Shown here piece after piece: positions 21,711-32,454 of a stretch of DNA of 64,000 nt. A model generated the notes under the pieces. It saw only the letters and a list, made by a program, of their open reading frames with translations, searched no databases and was not told the DNA's origin. Source of the DNA: Planctomycetota bacterium (GTDB lineage Bacteria; Planctomycetota; B15-G4); NCBI GenBank assembly GCA_038212275.1, contig JBBQUR010000003.1:219550-283549 (forward strand), read 5' to 3'. Both the position numbers and the translations under genes were made by a program. The first letter of the stretch is position 1. Each line of letters begins with the position of its first letter.

Positions 21711-24502
21711 TGGCTGTCCTCGATCGCATCGCTCGCCGGGCCATGATCCAGACCGCGGCGATGATCCACATCGCCAATCACCGCGCCGGCGTGCGGCCGA
21801 CGGACCCCAAGGTCGGCGGCCATCCGGCGGCGTGCAGCAGCAGCGCGCACATCCTCACGGCGCTGCACTGCGCCGTGCGCGAGCCGGACGACTTCATCGC
21901 GTGCAAGCCGCACGCCGCGCCGCTCGATCACGTGCTGCACGGCATGATGGGCCTGATGAATCATCCCGACTTCCGCTGGTTCAACCAGGCGGAGATCGAG
22001 GCGGCGCTGCGCACGCTGCGCAAGTTCCCCGAGGCGGGCGAGGCGGTCTTCCAGAGCTACCACGCGCGGACGGACCCGGACACCTTTCACATGATGCCGT
22101 CGGGCAGCGTCGGCATCCCGCCGGTGGTGTCGGTGTACACGGCTCTGGCGTATCGCTACGCGCGCGATCATGCCGTGGAACTGCCCGAGGTGCCGGAGCA
22201 CCTGCACTTCTGGTCGCTCATCGGCGACAGCGAGTTCCGCGAGGGCAGCCTCATGGAGGCGATGCCGGACGTGGCGGAGCGCGAGCTGGGCAACGTGACC
22301 TGGATCGTGGACTACAACCGCCAGAATCTCGACGGCGCGCGCATGCCCAACAAGAAGGGCCTGCACGGCACGGACGCGCACCGCATCGAGGCGATGTCCG
22401 CAGCCAACGGCTGGGAGGTCATCCAGGTGCGCCACGGCAAGCTGCGCCGCGAGATCTTCGCGCGTCCCGGCGGCGAGCTGCTGCGCTCGGTGCTCGAGGA
22501 AGGCTTCTCGGACTACGAGCTGCAGATGCACCTCTTCGCGCGGGACATGGACGACACGCGCCGCGCGCTCATCGGCCACGACAGCCGCCTCGTCGGCCTG
22601 CTCGACGGCATGGACGACGAACTCCTCGAGCGCACGCTCACGGATCTGGGCGGCCACGACACCGAGGCGCTCGTCGACGCGTTGCAGGCAAGCAAGGCGG
22701 ACACCAGCCGTCCGACGCTCATCGTCGCGCACACGGTGAAGGGCTGGGGCATGGACATGTATGCCGCGCCCGGCAATCACAGCGAGCTGCCGCGCGAGGA
22801 AGAACTGGAAGGCCTGCTCGGCACCGAGGGCCTGTCGCTCGCGCGACCTTTCGCGCCGTGGGATCCGTCCAGCGAGGAAGGCAGCTACCTCTCTTCGCGT
22901 GGCGCCGCTTTCCGCTCGGCCATCGACGGCATCCGCATGCGGCGTCGCGCCAACCGCGAGGCGGTGCGCGCCAAGATCAACGCCGCCGGCGGCGTGCCGC
23001 GCAGCCTCGACATCGACACGCGCCTGTTTCCGCGCGCCCACACCCAGTGGATGTGGGGCCAGCTCGCGGCCAAGCTCGTGCGCATCGGCACCAATGGCGA
23101 GCAGCGGCGCCGCGGGCACGACGTGCCTCCCGCGCTCTCCGCCAAGGAGCAGGCATGGGAGGCCTCGGCCGACCTGCTGCTCACCATGTCGCCCGACGTC
23201 GGCACGTCCACGCAGATCAGCTCGGCCATGGACAGCAAGGTCTACGGCCAGCGCAGCGAGAGCGAGGAAGGCGTCGAGGATGTCGAGGAACGTCTCGGCG
23301 TGCACAAGAAGCGCCCCGCGCTGCTGCCGACCACGGAGCCGTGGACGCGGCACATCCGCTTCGAGATCGCGGAAGCCAACTGCATGTCGGCGGTCGGCGC
23401 CTTCGGGATGATGGGCCACCACGCGGGCGTGCCCTTCTTCCCGATCATGACCGTGTACGACTTCTTCATCAAAAGGGCGCTCGACCAGCTCTTCTACAAC
23501 CTCTACTGGGGCGCCGAATTCGTGATCCTCGGCACGCCGTCGGGCGTGACGCTGTCGCCCGAGGGCGCGCAGCACAGCTGGAAGTCGGACATCCAGATTC
23601 CCAACCTCATCACGTGGGAGCCGATCTTCGCGGTCGAAGTCGACTGGATCCTGTGCGAGTCCATCCGCCGCCACTTCGACGACGAGAACGACGGCCGCAA
23701 GGGCATCCTCATCCGCGCCGTGACGCGCGGCGTCGAACAGAAGGATCTGGTGCGACGCCTGCGGCGCCACCCGCGCTTCCGCACCAACCCCGCGGACCTG
23801 CAGAGCGAGCCGCTCGATGACGCGACCATTCTGGAGCAGGCGCGCCGCGACTGCCTCTCGGGCGCCTATCACCTCGTGGATTTCCGCGGACAGCCGGACT
23901 ACGAGCCCGGGGTGAACGTCGTCAACCTCTTCGTCATGGGCTCGGTGGCTACCGAGGCGCTGGCCGCGAGCGATGCGCTGCGCGCCGAAGGCCTCTACGT
24001 CAACGTCATCGCGGTGAGCAGTCCGGAACTGCTGCTCGGCAACCTGGCGGCGGTGAACGACTTCGCGCACCTGCGGCACGGTCTCGGGCTGGACGGCAAC
24101 CTGCACCTGTCGCCGCGCGGCACGGTGGACAGCACGGCGGAACTGGTCACGCTGGCCGGCCGGCGCGTGCCTGTGGTCTCGGTGCACGACGGCGAGGCCG
24201 GGCTGCTCGACAACATCGGCAGCATCCTCGGCGTGCGCCAGGAGACGCTCGCCGTGCGCAAGTTCAGCAAGTCGGGGCGACCCGACCAGGTCTTCGGCTA
24301 CCAGCACCTCGACCAGGCCTCCATCATCGAGTCGGTGGGCAAGGCGCTCTCCGAGACGGCGCTGGAGGAGGTCGTCGTGAGCCGCGAGGCGCTTGCAGCG
24401 CTGCTCCAGCGGCCCGCCGCGCACGCGAACGGTGCGGACGCGTCGGGCAGCAGCGGCGACAACCGCTGGCGCGAACTCTGGGACGCCGGCCGCTCGGCCT
24501 GA
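21710..24502 (+). CDS. AceE-like homodimeric 2-oxoacid (pyruvate) dehydrogenase E1, ThDP enzyme
   Basis: KVGGH, QSYH, GDSE...DYNRQNLD, AHTVKGWG, SPDV, EIAEAN, GTPSGVTLSPEGAQH; TGATG coupling to mdh. Confidence 0.85.
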   Translation: MAVLDRIARRAMIQTAAMIHIANHRAGVRPTDPKVGGHPAACSSSAHILTALHCAVREPDDFIACKPHAAPLDHVLHGMMGLMNHPDFRWFNQAEIEAALRTLRKFPEAGEAVFQSYHARTDPDTFHMMPSGSVGIPPVVSVYTALAYRYARDHAVELPEVPEHLHFWSLIGDSEFREGSLMEAMPDVAERELGNVTWIVDYNRQNLDGARMPNKKGLHGTDAHRIEAMSAANGWEVIQVRHGKLRREIFARPGGELLRSVLEEGFSDYELQMHLFARDMDDTRRALIGHDSRLVGLLDGMDDELLERTLTDLGGHDTEALVDALQASKADTSRPTLIVAHTVKGWGMDMYAAPGNHSELPREEELEGLLGTEGLSLARPFAPWDPSSEEGSYLSSRGAAFRSAIDGIRMRRRANREAVRAKINAAGGVPRSLDIDTRLFPRAHTQWMWGQLAAKLVRIGTNGEQRRRGHDVPPALSAKEQAWEASADLLLTMSPDVGTSTQISSAMDSKVYGQRSESEEGVEDVEERLGVHKKRPALLPTTEPWTRHIRFEIAEANCMSAVGAFGMMGHHAGVPFFPIMTVYDFFIKRALDQLFYNLYWGAEFVILGTPSGVTLSPEGAQHSWKSDIQIPNLITWEPIFAVEVDWILCESIRRHFDDENDGRKGILIRAVTRGVEQKDLVRRLRRHPRFRTNPADLQSEPLDDATILEQARRDCLSGAYHLVDFRGQPDYEPGVNVVNLFVMGSVATEALAASDALRAEGLYVNVIAVSSPELLLGNLAAVNDFAHLRHGLGLDGNLHLSPRGTVDSTAELVTLAGRRVPVVSVHDGEAGLLDNIGSILGVRQETLAVRKFSKSGRPDQVFGYQHLDQASIIESVGKALSETALEEVVVSREALAALLQRPAAHANGADASGSSGDNRWRELWDAGRSA

Positions 24503-24571
24503 AACGCCGGCTGGTCGGCCTGAAACGCCGGCCGGCGGCCTGAAACGCCGGCCGATCGGCCTGAAACGCCG
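24495..24571. repeat. 20-21-bp tandem repeat x4 (core CGGCCTGAAACGCCG) starting on the aceE-like stop codon
   Basis: Units start at 24495, 24516, 24536 and 24557. Confidence 0.9.
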
Positions 24572-24704
24572 TCGCACGCGTCGGCATCTCACCCCCGACG
24601 GCCGGCCTCCGCGGTTGCTGCTCCGTCCGCCATGCGGGCGGCGCGATGTCAGCGAGGCGATCCGACCGGGGCCATGCCTGCCGCTTCTACCCGGAGTTCC
24701 GCTC

Positions 24705-25916
24705 ATGCGATCCTGCCTTGCAGCCCTCACACTTGTCTTCGGTGCGCTGTGCGCCTCGACCGCGCCGTCCGTGCATGCGCAGCAGGTCGCCCACGAGGCC
24801 GGCGGCTCGGCGCTCGCGTCGCAGGCAGCGCCTGCCGACAGCAGCCAGCATCAGCTCGGAAAGGACGGTCTCGCGATCGAGGGTTGGGATCCGGTCGCGT
24901 ACTTCCCCGAGGGCGGCGGCAAGCCGGCCGAGGGAAGCGCCGCGCACGAGGTCGCACTGAACGGCGCACGCTACCGATTCACGAACGCGCAGCACGCGCA
25001 GCTCTTCTCCGCGAATCCCGGGCGCTACGTGCCTGCCTACGGCGGGTGGTGCGCCTACGCGATGGCCCAGGGCGAGAAGGTCGAGGTCGATCCCGAGTCC
25101 TTCACGGTGCAGGACGGGCGCCTCATGCTCTTCTACAAGTCCTTCTTCAACGACACGCGGGCCTCGTGGCTGAAGGACGCCACGCTGCTGCCCAAGGCGG
25201 ACGCCCACTGGAAGACCCTCAGCGGCGAGAGCGCGCGCGGCGACGCAGCCGCAGCCTCGGCCGCCGCCGCGACCGCGACCGCGACCGCGACCGCGACCGC
25301 GACCGCGACCGCGACCGCCGCGACCGTGACTGCCGCGACTGCCGCTGCCGCAACTGCCGCTGCCGCAACTGCCGCCGTAGCAGGCGCCGCGCACGGGCCC
25401 GAGGCCCCGACTGCCGACGCGGGGATGAAGGCGACGATCGGCGTGGGCAGCGGCACGCTCGGTCCGGCCGTCGGACACGACGTGGGACAGCGTGCGCCGG
25501 CCTTCACGCTCAAGGACAAGGCCGGCGCCGAGCACTCGCTCGCGGACTATCGTGGAAAGCTCGTCGTGCTGGACTTCTGGGCGACGTGGTGCGGGCCGTG
25601 CAAGGCCGCGATGCCCGGCGTGCAGAAGCTGCACGAGAGCTTCAAGGACAAGGGCGTCGTCGTCATCGGCGTGGATGGTTTCGAGCGCAGCACGGAGGCG
25701 GACCCGGCGGCGTACATGGCGAGCAAGGGCTTCACCTACCAACTGCTGCTCGGCGGAGAAGCGCTCAAGGACTCCTACGCGCTGGAGGCGCTGCCGACTT
25801 TCATGGTCATCGACGAGGACGGCCTGGTGCTCGCGCGCGAGGTCGGCCAGCCGGACGACGAAACGCAGTTGACCACGCTCGTCTCGAAGCACCTCTCCGG
25901 CCGCCGCGGAGGCTGA
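24705..25916 (+). CDS. Secreted YHS-domain (seleno)protein-like domain + Ala/Thr linker + TlpA-like thiol-disulfide oxidoreductase
   Basis: Signal peptide; GWDPVAYF, YRF, YVPAYGGWCAYAM; (GCGACC)8 linker; APAFTL, DFWATWCGPC, LPTFMVID. Confidence 0.85.
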   Translation: MRSCLAALTLVFGALCASTAPSVHAQQVAHEAGGSALASQAAPADSSQHQLGKDGLAIEGWDPVAYFPEGGGKPAEGSAAHEVALNGARYRFTNAQHAQLFSANPGRYVPAYGGWCAYAMAQGEKVEVDPESFTVQDGRLMLFYKSFFNDTRASWLKDATLLPKADAHWKTLSGESARGDAAAASAAAATATATATATATATATAATVTAATAAAATAAAATAAVAGAAHGPEAPTADAGMKATIGVGSGTLGPAVGHDVGQRAPAFTLKDKAGAEHSLADYRGKLVVLDFWATWCGPCKAAMPGVQKLHESFKDKGVVVIGVDGFERSTEADPAAYMASKGFTYQLLLGGEALKDSYALEALPTFMVIDEDGLVLAREVGQPDDETQLTTLVSKHLSGRRGG

Positions 25917-25969: not shown

Positions 25970-26605
25970 TCAGTGTGGCGCGGTGTCCTGCCCGGCCCAG
26001 TTGGCCAGCAGGCCCGTGTCGCGCACGAGGTTTCCGAGCGAGGCCTCGTCGGCGGCGTAGGCGCCGCGCACGCGGCCGTAGCGGTCCAGGAGCAGCCACT
26101 CCGCGCCGGGGCTGCCGGCGGCGGTGCAGAGGCGCGTGAACTCGTCGCCGTGCGGATCCAGCAGGAAGAGGTTGAGCGGCTTGCGCGCCTTGCGCTCGTC
26201 GAGCAGCAGCGACAGCGCGGAGGGCTCGTCGCCACGGCACAGCAGCACGAAGGCCACGGCCTTGTCGAGGCCGCGCAGATGTTTGCGCAGGCGGAACAGG
26301 CCCGAGAGCGTCTCGCCGCTTGCGGTGGCGTTGGCCAGCGGCAGCGAGGACACCAGCACGAGATGACCGCGCAGGCTTTCCAGCGACACCGTCGCGCCCT
26401 TCTCGTCGGCCAGTTCGCAGATCATCGGCGGGCCGTCCTGGCCGGGGAGAGGCGGCGGCAGCGTCGCGGTGAGCGCCTTCACGAGCGGAAAGCTGAAGAG
26501 CACCGCGATGCCGAGCACCCAGAACCACGGCCGCGACAGGATCTTCGCGGGAGCCGCAGCCGCAGCCGGAGCCGGGGACGGGGACGGGGACGGGGACGCG
26601 TGCAT
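25970..26605 (-). CDS. Degenerate SCO/SenC-like membrane-anchored thioredoxin-fold protein (start uncertain)
   Basis: TM anchor; PPPLP..ELADEKGATVSLESLRGHLVLV; LLLDRYGRVRGAY; no CxxxC; last gene of the cox operon. Confidence 0.6.
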   Translation of the reverse strand: MHASPSPSPSPAPAAAAAPAKILSRPWFWVLGIAVLFSFPLVKALTATLPPPLPGQDGPPMICELADEKGATVSLESLRGHLVLVSSLPLANATASGETLSGLFRLRKHLRGLDKAVAFVLLCRGDEPSALSLLLDERKARKPLNLFLLDPHGDEFTRLCTAAGSPGAEWLLLDRYGRVRGAYAADEASLGNLVRDTGLLANWAGQDTAPH

Positions 26606-26685
26606 GTCCGCGGACTCGGACGCGCCCGCCGGCGGCTCCCCGCGCGCAGACGACGCGCCGGGTGTCGGCGGCACGCCCGGCGACG

Positions 26686-26952
26686 TCAGTTCGACCCCTC
26701 GTTCTCGCTGGCGAGCAGGCGCTTGAGCCACACCCAGACGCCCGAGACGATCACGTACGGCAGGAGCACGAACGCGGCGATGTAGACCAGCGTGTCCGCG
26801 CCCTGCGACAGCGAGCAGTAGGGGCACGCGGCGGCGGCGGGCGCGAGCCCGGAGAGCATGACGGCGGCCGCGGCGGCGATGCGCCCTCCGCGTGCGGCGG
26901 TCGACGGACGCGTGGCGCGCGAACGTCCTGCATGGGCCCGCGGGCTGCTCAC
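26686..26952 (-). CDS. Small membrane protein with CPxC motif (alternative ATG at 26859)
   Basis: AAAACPYC followed by a single TM helix; GTG overlaps the subunit IV stop. Confidence 0.65.
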   Translation of the reverse strand: MSSPRAHAGRSRATRPSTAARGGRIAAAAAVMLSGLAPAAAACPYCSLSQGADTLVYIAAFVLLPYVIVSGVWVWLKRLLASENEGSN

Positions 26953-27326
26953 GAAAGCGTGTTCCGCCACGCCGTCTCGATCATGAGCAGGATCGCGGCG
27001 ACGCCCATGTACGCCGGGACAAGCGCGATCCGCTTGAGCCACGGCGATTCCCACTTGAGGTGCATGAAGTACAGCGCGACGAGCAGGGCCTTGCTGAAGG
27101 CCAGGATCACGAGCAGCAGCATCTTGGTGTGCTGGTTCCACGGCGCGTCGTAGACGGACGGGATCATGACCTCGACCATCGTGAGGAACGCCAGCACCAG
27201 GAAGATGGTGATGAAGGTGCTGTCGGTCGGCCCGTGCGCGGCGGCGCCCAGAGGGGCATGACTGCCGGCGACCGGCTGCTCGTGGCCGTGGCCGTCGTGT
27301 GCGGAGGCGTGCTTGTGCTTGCTCAC
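26949..27326 (-). CDS. Cytochrome c oxidase subunit IV family
   Basis: LAFLTMVEV, KALLVALYFMHLKWE. Confidence 0.9.
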   Translation of the reverse strand: MSKHKHASAHDGHGHEQPVAGSHAPLGAAAHGPTDSTFITIFLVLAFLTMVEVMIPSVYDAPWNQHTKMLLLVILAFSKALLVALYFMHLKWESPWLKRIALVPAYMGVAAILLMIETAWRNTLS

Positions 27327-27336
27327 TGGAGGGGCC

Positions 27337-28029
27337 TCACAGCAGGTAGATGAAGGTGAAGACGAGGATCCACACGAGGTCCACGAAGTGCCAGAAGAGC
27401 CCGACCAGTTCCACCGGGCTGTGCGTGATGCCGCCCTGCGTGTACTTGCCGCGCAGCGTGCCGATCAGGATGCAGAAGAGATAGACCACGCCGGAGAAGA
27501 CGTGCAGGCCGTGGAAGCCCGTGACCACGTAGAAGGTGGAGCCGAAGAGGTTGTTGATCGGCTGGCCTTCCCACGTGGAGGTCGCGAAGCCGATGCCCTC
27601 GCCGACAAGGTGGTGATACTCGTAGGCCTGGATGCTCAGGAAGCCGAGGCCACCGAGGATCGTGAACGCCAGCCACTTCACGGTGGCGGCCTTGTTCGCC
27701 GCCTGCGAGGCCGCCACGGCCTTCACCATCGTGAGCGACGAGCAGATGAGCAGGAAGGTGGCGAAGGCCGTGAGGTTGATACCCAGGATGTCCGTGGGCC
27801 GCATGCCCGTGCGGGGCCAGTCGCCGTGCGCGAAGATGCGCAGGATGCCGTAGGCCAGCAGCAGCCCGCCGAAGGAGAAGCCGTCCTGCGCGATGAACAA
27901 CCACATCGCGACCTTGCCGCCCGTGGCCTTGCCGACGTGCGGATCCTCGGCGATGTCGTCGTGGCCATGAGCATCGGCAGCGCCGTGCGCGCCGTGCCCA
28001 CCGTGTGACACTGATGCCGTGCTGGACAT
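27337..28029 (-). CDS. Heme-copper oxidase subunit III (copy 2, CoxP-like)
   Basis: KVAMWLFI, TFLLICSS, TGFHGLHV, GLFWHFVDLVWI. Confidence 0.92.
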   Translation of the reverse strand: MSSTASVSHGGHGAHGAADAHGHDDIAEDPHVGKATGGKVAMWLFIAQDGFSFGGLLLAYGILRIFAHGDWPRTGMRPTDILGINLTAFATFLLICSSLTMVKAVAASQAANKAATVKWLAFTILGGLGFLSIQAYEYHHLVGEGIGFATSTWEGQPINNLFGSTFYVVTGFHGLHVFSGVVYLFCILIGTLRGKYTQGGITHSPVELVGLFWHFVDLVWILVFTFIYLL

Positions 28030-28051
28030 GCGGGATGGAATCCTGGGAGTT

Positions 28052-28639
28052 CTAGAGAGCGAAGAAGGAGACGAACAGCACCAGCCACACGGCATCCACG
28101 AAGTGCCAGAAGATGGCGACGCTGGACGCGGGCGTGGCGCGGCCGGCGTTGATCCGTCCGGTCAGCGCACCGGCCTGGATGAAGCCGAGCGCGATGAGGC
28201 CGCACACGACGTGCAGCGCGTGGAACCAGGTGAGCATGTAGAAAAGGCCCTGGTACATGTCGGTGTCGGGCCGGCCGCCGGCCTCCCAGACATCGATCCA
28301 GAGCCAGCTCTGCAACGCCGCGAAAGCCAGGCCTGCGCCGAGCCCGAGTGCCCAGCGTCCCGCGAATCCCGGCTGGCCGGCGCGGAGCCGCTTCACCGCG
28401 GAGTGCAGCAGTGCGCTGCTCGCGAGCAGCACGGCCGTCGCGAGTCCGGCCAGCGGCAGCGACGGCAGCACCACGCCTTCCGGTGGCCACACCGGCTGCC
28501 GGTGCCGCAGGACGAGGAAGGTCAGGAAGAGTGTGGCGAAGGCCATGCTCCAGCTGCCGATGAACAGCACCATGCCGAAGGTCGCATCGACCCGCGCGCG
28601 GCGGCTTTCGGTCGGCAGTGGCAGGGCCAGGTCGCTCAT
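28052..28639 (-). CDS. Heme-copper oxidase subunit III (copy 1, CoxO-like)
   Basis: FGMVLFI, TAVLLASS, FHALHV, FWHFVDAVW. Confidence 0.9.
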   Translation of the reverse strand: MSDLALPLPTESRRARVDATFGMVLFIGSWSMAFATLFLTFLVLRHRQPVWPPEGVVLPSLPLAGLATAVLLASSALLHSAVKRLRAGQPGFAGRWALGLGAGLAFAALQSWLWIDVWEAGGRPDTDMYQGLFYMLTWFHALHVVCGLIALGFIQAGALTGRINAGRATPASSVAIFWHFVDAVWLVLFVSFFAL

Positions 28640-28707
28640 CGTGGGCTCTTCAGGGCCGGGGAGGACGGCTCACGCAGCCGCTGCGGGCCGCGTGCGCTGC
28701 TCTCGCC

Positions 28708-30426
28708 TCAGGTCGGCAGCTGCTCCGATTGGGAAATCCAGTCGCGGTCCTTGAGCGCCGGGTGGCTGTACTCGTGCGGGCCGGTGACGACGGTAGGGAT
28801 GGTGTCGTAGTTGTGGTGCGGCGGCGGGCTCGGGATCGTCCACTCGAGCGTGCCGACCTCCCACGGGTTCACGCTGGCCTTGCTTCCCCACCAGCGACTC
28901 TTGATGAAGTTGAACGCGAAGATGAGCTGCGCGCCGCCGAGGAAGAAGGCCGCGACGCTCGTGATCACGTTGAGGTGCTGCAGCGAACGCAGGTAGTCCA
29001 CGTCCGTGTGGTTGTAGTACCGGCGCGGCATGCCCGCGTAGCCGCTGATGAACATCGTGCAGAAGACGATGGTCAGCGGGATGATCGTGGCCCAGAAGTG
29101 CAGCTTGCCCAGCTTCTCGGACATCATTTTCCCGAACATCTTCGGGAACCAGAAGTAGGTGGCCGCGAAGGCCCCGAACAGCGAGGACGCCGCCATGGTC
29201 AGGTGGAAGTGCCCGACGACGAAGTAGGTGTCGTGCAGGTAGATGTCCGTGGAGATCGTGGCGAGGTAGATGCCCGTGAGGCCGCCGAGGCCGAACACGA
29301 AGATCACGCCCATCGAGAACAGCATCGGCGTCGTGAAGCGCAGGTTGCCGCGCCACAGCGTGTGCAGCCAGTTGAAGAACAGGATCTCGCCCGGCACCGA
29401 GATGATCATGGTGAGCAGCATGAAGCTCTCGCCGAGCATCGCGGTCATGCCGGTCGTGAACATGTGGTGGCCGTACACCACCGCGGACAGCACCGTCACC
29501 GCGCCCATCGCGCCGACGGTCACCTTGTAGGCGAAGGCCGGCTTGCGCGCGAAGAACGAGAGCAGGTCGGAGATGATGCCCCACGCGGGCAGGATGAGGA
29601 TGTAGACCTCGGGGTGGCCGAAGATCCAGAACAGGTGCTGGTAGAGGATCGGGTCGCCGCCGCCGCTCTGGTTGAGCGTGGCCGGCACGTAGAAGCTCGT
29701 GCCGAAGCTGCGGTCGAGGACCATGAGGATCATGGCGCTGCCGATGACCGGCAGGAAAAGCACGTTCAGGATGGCCGTGAAGAACATGCCCCAGATCGTG
29801 AGCGGCAGCTTGCTCCAGGTCATGCCCGGCGCGCGCAGCCGCACGATCGTGGTGATGTAGTTGATGCCGCCCATGATGGAGCTGGCGCCGATCAGGAACA
29901 CCGCGATGGCCCAGAGCGTCTCGCCCGAACCCGGCGTGCCGATGGTGCTCGAGAGCGTCGGGTATGCGGTCCAGCCGCCCTCGGCCGCGCCCAGCGGCAC
30001 GAAGAGCGAGTAGAAGCCGACCAGGCCGCCCAGCACCACCGTCCAGAAGGACAGCATGTTGAGCAGCGGGAAGATCATGTCCCGCGCGCCGATCATGAGC
30101 GGGATGCAGAAGTTGCCGAAGGCGCCGATCAGCAGGGGAGTGAGCCCCAGGAAGATCATGATCGTGCCGTGCATCGTGAACAGCGTGTTGTAGCCGTCGG
30201 GCGGCACCGAGCCGTCGCCGCGCGGGTACAGCAGCTTGCCGATGAGCGGCACCGGGCTGCCCGGGTGGGCGAGCTGCCAGCGGATCATCATGGCCATGAT
30301 GCCGCCGACGAGCAGCCACACCAGGCCGAACCACATGAACTGTCTCGCGATGACCTTGTGGTCCACCGAGAAGACGTGCTTGCGCAGGAAACCCGTCGGC
30401 TCCGCGTGGATGTGATCGCCACTCAT
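28708..30426 (-). CDS. ctaD: Heme-copper oxidase subunit I, A1-like, K-channel-deficient variant
   Basis: TMHG, GWTAYP, FGHPEVY, GHHM, HDTYFVVGHFH, GMPRR; helix VIII reads VPGEILFFNW. Confidence 0.95.
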   Translation of the reverse strand: MSGDHIHAEPTGFLRKHVFSVDHKVIARQFMWFGLVWLLVGGIMAMMIRWQLAHPGSPVPLIGKLLYPRGDGSVPPDGYNTLFTMHGTIMIFLGLTPLLIGAFGNFCIPLMIGARDMIFPLLNMLSFWTVVLGGLVGFYSLFVPLGAAEGGWTAYPTLSSTIGTPGSGETLWAIAVFLIGASSIMGGINYITTIVRLRAPGMTWSKLPLTIWGMFFTAILNVLFLPVIGSAMILMVLDRSFGTSFYVPATLNQSGGGDPILYQHLFWIFGHPEVYILILPAWGIISDLLSFFARKPAFAYKVTVGAMGAVTVLSAVVYGHHMFTTGMTAMLGESFMLLTMIISVPGEILFFNWLHTLWRGNLRFTTPMLFSMGVIFVFGLGGLTGIYLATISTDIYLHDTYFVVGHFHLTMAASSLFGAFAATYFWFPKMFGKMMSEKLGKLHFWATIIPLTIVFCTMFISGYAGMPRRYYNHTDVDYLRSLQHLNVITSVAAFFLGGAQLIFAFNFIKSRWWGSKASVNPWEVGTLEWTIPSPPPHHNYDTIPTVVTGPHEYSHPALKDRDWISQSEQLPT

Positions 30427-30433
30427 CTCGCGG

Positions 30434-31321
30434 CTACTCCTTCCATTCCCAGGCCCAGAGGGCCTCGGGATCGTTGCTGTCGTATGCCGTGAGCGCGAGT
30501 GCGCCGGCTTCCTTCTCCCACGCCTTGAAGGCCTCGGCGGGCAGCACGTTCACGGTGCCGTGCATCTGGTAGTGCGCGTAGCCGCACAGTTCCGCGCAGA
30601 GGATGTCGTAGCTGCCGGCGACGACGGGCTTGAACCACACCTGGTTGATCGCGCCGGGGTTGGCATCGCGCTTCACGCGCATGTCGGGCACGAAGAAGGA
30701 GTGGATCACGTCCTTGCTGGTGACGTTGAAGACGGCGGGGCGGTCCATCGGCAGCGTGAGCGTGTTGATGGTCACGATGTCGTCGGGCGTTCCGAACTTG
30801 CCGTCCTCGCCGGTCACGCGGAAGTTCCACGCCCACTGCTGGGCCAGGACCTCCACCTGGTAGGCGCCCTTCTCGACGTTCGGGATGTTCCACACGACCT
30901 CGCGCAGGTCCTTCATGGTCATCACGAGCACGGAGGCGTCGAGCACGAGGAACACGATGACCGACACGATCGCCGTGAAGCGCTTGTCGTGCAGGCTGCT
31001 GCCCTCGTCGTAGTGGGCCTTGTGTCCGGGGCGCGCGCGGTCGCGCAGCACCGGCACGATGAGCATCACCAGCACGATCAGGAAGCTCACGCTGATCATC
31101 GTGGTGATCAGCCAGAAGAGGCTGTCCACACGGCCGCCGTTGGCGCTCGCGGGGGCATTGGGGCCCCAGCGGTCGGCCAGTTCCTGCGCGGCGAGCGACG
31201 GCGCGCAGGCCAGCGCCAGCAGCGCAGTGAGCGTCGCCAGCCATGCACGCGCGGGCAGCCGGGAGCGACCCGTGCACCCGATGAGGAGAGAGTTCAAGGG
31301 TTTCACTCCGCTGGTGGTCAC
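30434..31321 (-). CDS. ctaC: Heme-copper oxidase subunit II with CuA site
   Basis: Two TM helices, AQQWAW, DVIHSFF, CAELCGYAHYQM; GTG overlaps the upstream stop. Confidence 0.93.
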   Translation of the reverse strand: MTTSGVKPLNSLLIGCTGRSRLPARAWLATLTALLALACAPSLAAQELADRWGPNAPASANGGRVDSLFWLITTMISVSFLIVLVMLIVPVLRDRARPGHKAHYDEGSSLHDKRFTAIVSVIVFLVLDASVLVMTMKDLREVVWNIPNVEKGAYQVEVLAQQWAWNFRVTGEDGKFGTPDDIVTINTLTLPMDRPAVFNVTSKDVIHSFFVPDMRVKRDANPGAINQVWFKPVVAGSYDILCAELCGYAHYQMHGTVNVLPAEAFKAWEKEAGALALTAYDSNDPEALWAWEWKE

Positions 31322-32454
31322 GGGGCTGCTCGCAGCGCGGCCATGAATGCGGCGCGCGCCGGCTTGTCCTTGTAGGTGTCCGTCAGGTGGCGCACGTAGT
31401 GAGCGATGGCCCACAGGTCTTCGTCGGGCATCGCGCCCTTCCAGGTCGGCATGCCGGCGCCGCCGATGCCGGCCGCGATGGTCTGGTAGGCCTCCAGCGG
31501 ATTGCCGCTGTAGCGCAGCGTCTGCCAGGTGAAGTCCGGCGCGAGGATCGCGACCTTGTAGCCGAGCACCTCGTAGCTGCTGTCCTTCTTGAGCTTCGGA
31601 TACGTGACGTCGGCGGCGTAGGTCGTGGTCTTGTCCACGCCGCGGATCTCGTTGAGCTTCGCGGCGGTCACGTAGGCCGGGTGGCAGCCGTAGCACTGGT
31701 TCCGGTGATAGGCGATCTCGCCGGCCGCGATGCCCTGCGCTTCCTTGCCTTCCCACGGATCCGCTCCGGTCTCCACGACCGCGCCGATCTCGTTCACCGC
31801 GTCGCGCCAGCCTTCCTCTTCGGGCGAGAGCGACTTGATGTACTGCACGATGTCGCGCAGGCGCTCCTCGGACACGGCCCACGGGTACATCGGGGTGCCG
31901 CCGAGGCCGTGGCGCACCAGCGTGACGAGCGCGTCGTCGTTGGGCAGCTTGTCCGAAGGCACTTTGGTGAACTTGAAGCTGCTCTGCTTGAAGCTGCGGG
32001 GCGGCGGGCGCAGGTGCTGCGCGGAGCGGCCGTAGCCGTCGCCCTCGAGCCCGTGGCAGCTGGAGCAGAACTGCACGAAGTCCTGCCGGCCGCGGGTGAG
32101 CACGTCGGCGGGCACGAGCTGCCAGTAGATCTCCTCGTCATCGTCCCAGGTGAACTCGCCGGTGGCGTCGGCCCAGTGTTCGCCGTCCTTGCGGAAGCGC
32201 TCGGGATGCGCGGCGGCCAGCGTCTCCACGAAGTCCTCGCCGGGCGAGACGAGCTTCGCGGGCTCCGTGATCACCAGCGGCACGTGCAGCGGCGCACGGG
32301 CGAAGAGTCCCACGGCCTGCTCGACCGGGGGATTGACTGTTTCGTGGTCGTCTTCGGAAAGGCTGCCTTGATGCTGCAGGCAGGCAGAGAGCGGGCCGGC
32401 CAGCCCCGCCAGCAGCAGCAGGGCCATGGCCGGGCGCAGAAGGCTTGGCGTCAT
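31318..32454 (-). CDS. Di-heme c-type cytochrome lipoprotein
   Basis: LSAC lipobox; CSSCH and CYGCH; axial Met candidates GTPM and AGMP. Confidence 0.88.
   Translation of the reverse strand: MTPSLLRPAMALLLLAGLAGPLSACLQHQGSLSEDDHETVNPPVEQAVGLFARAPLHVPLVITEPAKLVSPGEDFVETLAAAHPERFRKDGEHWADATGEFTWDDDEEIYWQLVPADVLTRGRQDFVQFCSSCHGLEGDGYGRSAQHLRPPPRSFKQSSFKFTKVPSDKLPNDDALVTLVRHGLGGTPMYPWAVSEERLRDIVQYIKSLSPEEEGWRDAVNEIGAVVETGADPWEGKEAQGIAAGEIAYHRNQCYGCHPAYVTAAKLNEIRGVDKTTTYAADVTYPKLKKDSSYEVLGYKVAILAPDFTWQTLRYSGNPLEAYQTIAAGIGGAGMPTWKGAMPDEDLWAIAHYVRHLTDTYKDKPARAAFMAALRAAP

Follow-up and report, generated by a model that had tools for sequence, protein, structure and literature searches.

The window analysed here is a stretch of 64,000 nucleotides of Planctomycetota DNA (contig JBBQUR010000003.1), and its minus-strand operon at 25970-32454 encodes a haem-copper oxidase of the A1 subtype whose subunit I keeps the catalytic ligands and the D channel and has lost the lysine and threonine of the K channel. 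This enzyme is very probably a working cytochrome c:O2 oxidoreductase, and we lean towards the view that it is an aa3-type member of a lysine-free A1 subclade in which a substitute proton route has taken the place of the dismantled one. Three features appear to be newly described here: the co-variation of Glu347 with His355 on helix VIII, the Ser/Thr/Tyr replacements on helices VII and VIII, and an Asp that multiple alignment puts in the entrance column of subunit II. The need for two proton channels in A-type oxidases and the role of the K-channel lysine, which textbooks treat as essential, are still debated. The clade is in this respect a natural experiment, as it offers a conserved A1 enzyme with a whole D channel, a dismantled lysine path and cultured relatives (Bacteriovorax, Halobacteriovorax).

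Active site and proton channels of subunit I

Subunit I has the binuclear centre of subtype A1, with all six His ligands (residues 86, 271, 320, 321, 406 and 408), Glu273 and the cross-link Tyr275 of helix VI. The A-type D channel comprises, in Paracoccus (Pd) numbering, Asp124, Asn199, Asn113, Asn131, Tyr35, Ser134, Ser193 and Glu278 (Sousa et al. 2011, PMC3084760, Table 2). Seven of these eight residues are kept (N105, D116, N123, N189, S126, S183 and E273), the sole deviation being Phe30 at the Pd-Tyr35 position, which is Phe in all 121 rows of the clade described below and in 10 of 79 canonical rows. The K channel, given in the same table as Lys354, Thr351, Ser291 and Tyr280, retains Ser286 and Tyr275 and has Leu349 in place of Lys and Gly346 in place of Thr.

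Helix VIII (FMLLTMIISVPGEILFFNWLHTLW, residues 335-358) aligned without gaps to the ...iavptgikffnw... segment of 7rh6_R, 7rh5_R and 6adq_F in a phmmer search against solved structures, and it reads Gly346-Glu347-Ile-Leu349 where the solved A-type chains read Thr-Gly-Ile-Lys. The codons are GGC for G346 (29389-29391, Pd T351), GAG for E347 (29386-29388, Pd G352) and CTG for L349 (29380-29382, Pd K354). In the same alignments Tyr318 occupies the place of the conserved Trp, two positions ahead of the CuB His pair (vyghhm vs vwahhm). An earlier note, made from the DNA letters alone, had read the gapless helix VIII alignment with its three substitutions, the VYGHH motif and the intact ligands, GHPEVY motif and D channel in this way, and these searches bear it out. 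Its position for the helix VIII site (~29368-29403) is refined to 29353-29424, with the substituted codons at 29380-29391.

The best-scoring NCBIfam family is still TIGR02891 (CtaD_CoxA), at 605.1 bits and under its cut-off of 670.75, which matters for annotation since the clade falls below the CtaD equivalog threshold. Matches to ba3 chains reached an expectation value (E) of 1e-11 only.

A further difference was observed just after the haem a ligand His408, where the clade reads L-T-M-A-A and canonical enzymes Y-V-L-S-M (residues 408-413). The Tyr to Leu change occurs in 93% of clade rows, Tyr being found in 91% of canonical rows. This change and that of Trp318 to Tyr go together and may form a compensating pair.

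The substitutions are genuine, and the chance that they reflect a sequencing or assembly error or a decaying gene is negligible. An orthologue with 76-86% identity is present in 14 of the 15 other genomes of the window's family (the exception is 58% complete), and all 14 read PGEILF and VYGHH. The frame is open over 572 residues and every ligand is kept in 120 of 120 homologues. Contigs from other samples, compared for three DNA runs and one RNA run, cover the helix VIII codons with 1-3 differences per ~200 bases (X2 record 10, X4 record 29), and no alternative letter appears at 29380-29391 among the rows listed for them. In sequencing runs other than the probable source sample, no more than 0.36 of the words sampled from the gene occur; uncovered stretches and the many joints below 95% likeness in the sample contigs come from other organisms and were set aside. 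Helix VIII is also spanned by a contig from a soil metatranscriptome (X15 record 5; 169 bases, 6 differences, depth 3.7). As it may stem from a relative or from carried-over DNA, it was not counted as evidence of expression.

A lysine-free clade

Among 8000 scored homologues, the best 120 (62-97% identity) all lack the Lys (Leu in 91, Phe in 23, Ile in 6). In every one of them Tyr replaces the Trp, and the ligands and the D channel are retained; 83 carry Glu at the Pd-352 position. A FastTree phylogeny was built from 227 of 271 rows (fewer than 60 gaps over 535 columns; the dropped rows were fragments or fusions). In this tree the window protein and its 120 homologues form one clade of 121 with support 1.0, inside which Glu-bearing and Glu-free rows are interleaved, and the presence of Lys changes at least 10 times over the whole tree. 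Eighty loci were kept from a species-representative collection. Sixteen of them reach at least 52% identity, and each of these has Tyr and no Lys; the 64 at 44% or less all have Trp, with Lys in 63 and Gln in 1. The distinct subfamily proposed by the earlier note is thereby well founded, and a homologue retaining the Lys, which would have spoken against it, is not found among the best 120.

The 16 clade loci are titled Myxococcales, Polyangia, Myxococcaceae, Kofleriaceae, Hyalangium, Bacteriovoracaceae and Halobacteriovorax, and the nearest homologues with a named source are from Planctomycetota. The clade spans Myxococcota, Bacteriovoracaceae and probably Planctomycetota. Other families of the window's order have A2-type genes (SHPAVY) with the Lys, and some database records label clade members 'cbb3-type'.

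A sister group of rows (P0121, P0129, P0148, P0169 and P0128) has Tyr for Trp, lacks the Lys and has lost D-channel residues too, reading for example NGTS, TNSN or NRSN instead of NDNN, with E273 and Y275 kept. P0128 additionally carries the Glu and the His. These proteins are oxidase-like and have neither textbook channel.

Polar replacements on helices VII and VIII

The clade was compared with a canonical set of 79 rows in which the Lys, the Trp and the D-channel Asp are all present. Twenty-three columns carry a residue that is shared by 90% or more of the clade rows and by no more than 10% of the canonical ones. In helices VII and VIII, column 303 is Thr, Ser or Gln in 119 of 121 clade rows (Met in 65 of 79 canonical rows), column 311 is Thr, Cys or Ser in 108 (canonical Gly or Ala, 75), column 314 is Ser in 121 (canonical Gly, 67), column 318 is Tyr in 121 (canonical Trp, 79) and column 343 is Ser in 120 (canonical Ala, 69). 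Helix VII carries residues 303, 307, 311, 314 and 318 on a single face. In canonical enzymes the small residues G311/G314 and A343/G347 resemble a motif for close helix packing, and the clade would have exchanged this tight contact between helices VII and VIII for a polar seam that climbs towards the CuB His and Tyr275. An AlphaFold2 model made from a 16-row alignment was mediocre (mean predicted local distance difference test score 70.2, predicted template modelling score 0.78).

Over the wider A family, Ser343 occurs in 138 of 160 Lys-less rows and in 1 of 67 rows with Lys (raw counts). A family-wide link between loss of the Lys and Ser343, Ser314, Trp318, Ser286 or polar residues at 303/311 was nevertheless discarded, as the raw tables are lopsided and none of these associations is significant over six independent supported contrasts.

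The Glu347-His355 pair

Glu347, found in 84 of 121 clade rows where 64 of 79 canonical rows have Gly, is not clade-wide. It lies mid-membrane, and eight residues beyond it, near the cytoplasmic end of helix VIII, stands His355, which is present in 84 of 84 Glu rows and in 2 of 37 Glu-free rows. Within the mixed sister subclade, column 355 has the highest mutual information with column 347 (0.83), the next column reaching 0.59. On a tree built without columns 345-356, the Glu changes state at least 9 times; over 7 independent supported contrasts the His changes in the same direction in 6-7 and in the opposite direction in none (sign test, median p 0.016), and seven control columns gave p of at least 0.25 in the same test. 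The coupling is repeated in the genome loci, where His accompanies Glu in 15 of 15 and is found in 0 of 12 without it.

This tight coupling to His355 argues that Glu347 is functional in the window's subclade. Direct contact is impossible between residues i and i+8, and the simplest reading is therefore that the two would be stations of one relay. As Glu347 is absent from 37 of the 121 rows, it is not the clade's general solution.

Subunit II and the K-channel entrance

The CuA site of subunit II is intact (DVIHS ... CAELCGYAHYQM). The LExxWT motif is absent from this subunit, as the earlier note had stated; the missing entrance Glu that it also read need not mean that the entrance carboxylate is lost. 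When 147 clade rows and 59 canonical rows were aligned with MAFFT and anchored on the H-G ... W/F-T frame (H-G, Glu at +5, Trp or Phe at +8, Thr at +9), Asp104 ('LHDKRFT', 30986-30988) fell in the entrance-Glu column. Of the 147 clade rows, most of which come from the window's own subclade, 134 have Asp in this column; the Bacteriovoracaceae loci have His or Gln. An Asp may thus have taken over as the carboxylate at the entrance.

Two other acids of subunit II are strongly conserved in the clade. Asp120 (30938-30940) is invariant in 147 of 147 clade rows and Val or Ile in canonical rows; Asp130 (30908-30910) is found in 145 of 147, and the two are placed where the second transmembrane helix reaches the periplasm or past that point. 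Asp120 was considered as a stand-in for the lysine and rejected, being 16 residues past the entrance column, beside the canonical Pro-Thr at the periplasmic end of this helix and outside the K-path region.

A side observation concerns the CuA loop of the Myxococcota clade loci (L031-L042), which reads C-A-Q-[HY]-C-G-x2-H-x2-M, its Gln replacing a Glu that is present in canonical enzymes and in the window's subunit II and that serves as a ligand of Mg/Mn too.

Possible proton routes

In the reading that we somewhat favour, electrons would pass from a membrane-anchored dihaem cytochrome c to CuA, haem a and the haem a3-CuB centre, as the kept ligands suggest. The D channel, whose residues are kept, would supply the pumped protons and most of the chemical ones. 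On helix VIII the K path has lost both its Lys and its Thr, and its substitute would be a lysine-free polar route of the kind found in B- and C-family oxidases, formed by T/S303, T311, S314, Y318, S343 and T339. The window's subclade adds the His355 and Glu347 pair, whose coupling is observed and which might act as a relay fed from Asp104 of subunit II. The model proposed for the enzyme is that of the K-analogue channels of ba3 and cbb3 oxidases, which are lysine-free and lined by Ser, Thr and Tyr (PMC3084760, Table 2 footnote). The B and C families have no D channel; the window enzyme keeps it and by sequence belongs to neither.

A number of observations weigh against this reading. When relatedness is allowed for, the association of Lys loss with Ser343 and Ser314 is not significant (p 0.5 and 1), and Ser or Thr at small-residue packing sites can be purely structural. 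The idea that the polar residues of helix VII point towards those of helix VIII, or border a cavity, is a prediction from sequence, as are oxidase activity and pumping. The genome also has cbb3-like and bd oxidases, so that O2 respiration is independent of the operon enzyme. The Glu-His pair is dispensable, being missing from 37 of 121 members, and by helical phase (an arithmetic estimate) both residues lie roughly opposite the canonical Thr/Lys face. The assignment of Asp104 is ambiguous, since a pairwise phmmer alignment with 2yev_B shifts the register and puts Ala109 at the entrance position. The earlier note had suggested a test of its P-x-E-x motif against loss of the subunit II Glu; for the pair and the entrance acid no coupling can be asserted, as 12 of the 15 loci with Glu and His have an acid (a single family supplies 11 of these) and so do 4 of the 12 without the pair.

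An enzyme relying on the D channel only is quite possible, if not what we would expect. The K path would then be gone, all protons including those of the reductive half-cycle would enter through the D channel and E273, and a structural role would fall to the Ser/Thr/Tyr changes and to the Glu-His pair, for instance in repacking helices VII and VIII or in touching subunit II or lipid. This agrees with column 349 being Leu, Phe or Ile in 121 of 121 rows, with Ala or Gly at 346 in 98, with Ser at 286 in only 68, with the Glu-free members and with the non-significant tree-aware tests. The clade-invariant Thr96 (for Met/Ile) and Asn221 (for Leu) also point this way, being near the D channel or the E273 region; position 96 is one that we take to lie near the gating Glu. 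However, a block of the K path in canonical A-type enzymes stalls reduction of the binuclear centre even when the D channel is intact, so that some compensation is expected. Furthermore, the repeated joint loss or gain of Glu347 and His355, which are too far apart to touch, is hard to explain by packing.

More speculatively, and rather improbably in our judgement, His355, Glu347, Ser343 and Thr339 of helix VIII and, interleaved with them, Thr303, Thr311, Ser314 and Tyr318 of helix VII would form a new proton-input channel of carboxylate, imidazole and hydroxyl groups along the VII-VIII seam, opposite the classical lysine. The position of Glu347 and His355 off the lysine face is compatible with this idea and does not prove it. 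If it were true, an A-family oxidase with its D channel still in place would have a proton entry of a third kind. The Glu-His module would then come and go as one piece and tune the supply of protons to the binuclear centre. Comparison of Glu-His-bearing with Glu-His-free members bears on all of these questions, namely the viability of D-only function, the reinvention of a B/C-like hydroxyl route and the replacement of the lysine by a carboxylate.

Substrate and genome context

The genome (4.65 Mb, 91% complete) contains three PF00115 genes: subunit I of the operon, a C-family gene followed by FixO, and a gene of qNOR architecture whose protein combines NorB-cytochrome-c-like and COX1 parts. 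A cytochrome bd is also encoded. The operon enzyme is the only A-family oxidase of the genome and, to judge from its gene content, the only evident user of haem A. CtaA (103.9 bits) and CtaB (227.5 bits) are encoded side by side on contig 19; Cox11 was not found in the genome. Of the 14 family genomes with an orthologue, only one has a second A-type gene. The gene is also the sole A-type gene in three Bacteriovoracaceae genomes and, in one of these, the sole PF00115 match; the other PF00115 gene in the remaining two is read as a putative CcoN-CcoO fusion.

The earlier note had raised a change of substrate, for example to nitric oxide (NO). Loss of the lysine path impairs O2 turnover more than the reaction with peroxide in model enzymes. 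An enzyme mainly reducing NO, or a cytochrome c peroxidase or O2 scavenger conserving little energy, would also be in line with the carboxylate gained by helix VIII and with the loss of D-channel residues in the sister representatives; weak NO reduction by A-family oxidases is described in PMC11214002. Such a change is nonetheless unlikely, and we give it very little credence. NO reductases (NOR) are marked by H-x-Arom-x-E and H-H-x-Arom-Arom-x17-E (Sousa et al. 2011, PMC3084760); neither motif occurs in subunit I, and the second is found in 0 of 121 clade rows. The NOR helix VIII Glu would fall at residue 342, five residues before Glu347, and this position is Ile in 121 of 121 rows. NOR enzymes lack the cross-link Tyr and CuA; here Y275 and CuA are present, and these are kept, with the three CuB His and the full D channel, in all 121. 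The genome moreover has its separate gene of qNOR architecture and has kept the haem A synthesis genes.

Relation to known oxidases

For this clade, the loss of the K channel is on record in the literature. Degli Esposti et al. 2021 (Front Microbiol, PMC8239418) tabulated K-channel residues across COX1. Their Table_3 lists Halobacteriovorax multispecies and Bacteriovorax stolpii as A1 with Phe at K354 and Ile or Ala at E78 of COX2, with further lysine-free A1 groups in Elusimicrobia, Calescamantes and Methylacidiphilum. A row of Data_Sheet_2 reads 'Oligoflexia: Bacteriovorax and other taxa ... K-channel: no, KC', a label that a B/C-like lysine-free route fits. The row of the 'Oligoflexia' subclade (S291 S, K354 F, T351 S, S357 N, E292 D, then G T S S) is reproduced by the 'PSA[IV]FF' members of our clade at columns 286, 349, 346, 352, 287, 299, 303, 306 and 314, and the window enzyme therefore belongs to this catalogued group. 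Indeed, a Halobacteriovorax locus from a metagenome-assembled genome (L046; 60% identity) reads PSAIFF and VYGHH, and Halobacteriovorax and Bacteriovoracaceae loci reach 60-62% identity. Through these named loci and the residue string, the clustering, the hydrophobic K354 and the A1 Glu of the lysine-free 'Oligoflexia' enzymes were all found. Unlike the 'Oligoflexia' rows, the window's subclade has Gly or Ala at 346, the Glu347 and His355 pair and, by the multiple alignment, Asp in the subunit II entrance column, where theirs is Ile or Ala.

The lysine loss to which the earlier note drew attention is thus in print for the clade, although no biochemical characterisation of it was found in a literature search that covered few subscription journals. 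Nor did this search turn up any publication that deals with the Glu-His pair, with Tyr318 in place of Trp or with a member from Planctomycetota, and the portions of the text and supplement of PMC8239418 that were covered hold no mention of Tyr318, the Glu-His pair or a dihaem cytochrome c partner.

Canonical A1 aa3 oxidases (1ar1_A, 1m56_A, 7rh6_R) resemble the window enzyme in full-length similarity (E ~1e-125), ligands, GHPEVY, D channel, CuA and the presence of subunits III and IV. They differ from it by Thr-Gly-x-Lys for Gly-Glu-x-Leu, Trp for Tyr, the LExxWT motif, a TIGR02891 score that the window enzyme fails to reach, and one seven-helix subunit III instead of two short COX3-like proteins. 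In acidophilic iron oxidisers, lysine-free A-family oxidases have been described that keep the D channel (preprint 10.1101/2020.03.01.968255). The rus-operon CoxA of Acidithiobacillus and relatives, of type A2, shares with the window enzyme a hydrophobic residue at K354, the replacement of subunit II E78 and the kept D channel (same preprint; PMC8239418 Table_3); it differs by its A2 branch, its retained Thr351, the lack of Glu at 352 and of Tyr for Trp, and its operon. The 'subtype a-III (2 COX3)' of PMC8239418 Data_Sheet_2 also has two COX3-like genes beside subunits II and I; unlike the window enzyme, its members in Table_3 keep Lys354 and Glu78.

Gene organisation

The minus-strand open reading frames (ORFs) at 25970-32454 form a tight gene row in a G+C-rich window (0.66-0.74), and their Pfam matches agree with the list in the earlier note, which had a dihaem cytochrome c, two subunits III and a subunit IV beside subunits I and II (Table 1). 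Another two-COX3 oxidase cassette is CoxMNOP of Bradyrhizobium.

Table 1. Features of the oxidase operon, with positions in the window
Feature	Position	Strand	Basis
Dihaem cytochrome c, probable lipoprotein	31318..32454	-	Pfam PF13442 (2 stretches) and PF00034; CSSCH at 130, CYGCH at 254
Subunit II (COX2), 287 residues	30434..31297	-	PF00116; TIGR02866 (NCBIfam CoxB) 148.5 vs cut-off 147.7, just over; start as in called protein P0271
Subunit I (COX1), 572 residues, A1-type (GHPEVY), without K-channel Lys	28708..30426	-	PF00115 E 2.9e-144; solved chains E ~1e-125
Helix VII polar stripe T303, T311, S314, Y318	29473..29520	-	Clade vs canonical column counts
Helix VIII segment, residues 335-358	29353..29424	-	T339, S343, G346, E347, L349, N352, H355 (29362-29364)
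COX3-like protein a, 195 residues	28052..28639	-	PF00510 E 8.5e-16, profile positions 77-254 of 258
COX3-like protein b, ORF of 252 residues	27337..28095	-	PF00510 E 3.1e-17, profile positions 74-255 of 258
Small subunit IV (COX4_pro)	26949..27326	-	PF03626 E 2.4e-12
Membrane-anchored ORF without family, candidate operon member	25970..26827	-	One hydrophobic anchor and a C-terminal domain of ~170 residues

The dihaem cytochrome c, whose N-terminus (MTPSLLRPAMALLLLAGLAGPLSAC) contains a lipobox judged by eye, is likely to be the electron donor or a subunit of the oxidase. Its best solved match is 6h5l_B, ActE-type chains matching weakly, and a homologue stands beside the oxidase genes in 23 of 27 clade loci, in varying gene order. 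Indeed, the clade loci share one gene set (subunits II and I, COX3a, the dihaem cytochrome c, COX3b and subunit IV), of which the order differs among phyla. Both COX3-like proteins match only the last ~180 positions of the COX3 profile, and the true start of protein b is probably the Met at ORF residue 23 (~28029). A paralogue of the cytochrome with 29% identity (L002:383-1405, contig 5) lies directly upstream of the C-family COX1-like and FixO genes, and each of these oxidases therefore has its own copy of the cytochrome.

For the ORF at 25970-26827, Pfam and NCBIfam searches gave no match (AhpC-TSA at E 0.25 only) and no meaningful solved relative was obtained. It has no CxxxC at the place expected for an SCO-type copper chaperone, and no counterpart was found beside 16 distant clade loci.

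Two neighbouring genes complete this picture. Directly upstream of the cytochrome c gene and on the same strand, a radical-SAM protein (PF04055, 32639-33805, minus strand) is read as lysine-2,3-aminomutase-like and is reported here without a link to the oxidase. On the other side, the divergent gene at 24393-25916 (plus strand) encodes a thiol-disulfide oxidoreductase with AhpC-TSA, Redoxin and Thioredoxin matches at residues 364-492, preceded by a long N-terminal region with an Ala-Thr repeat run, and this protein is a candidate TlpA-like helper of CuA maturation.

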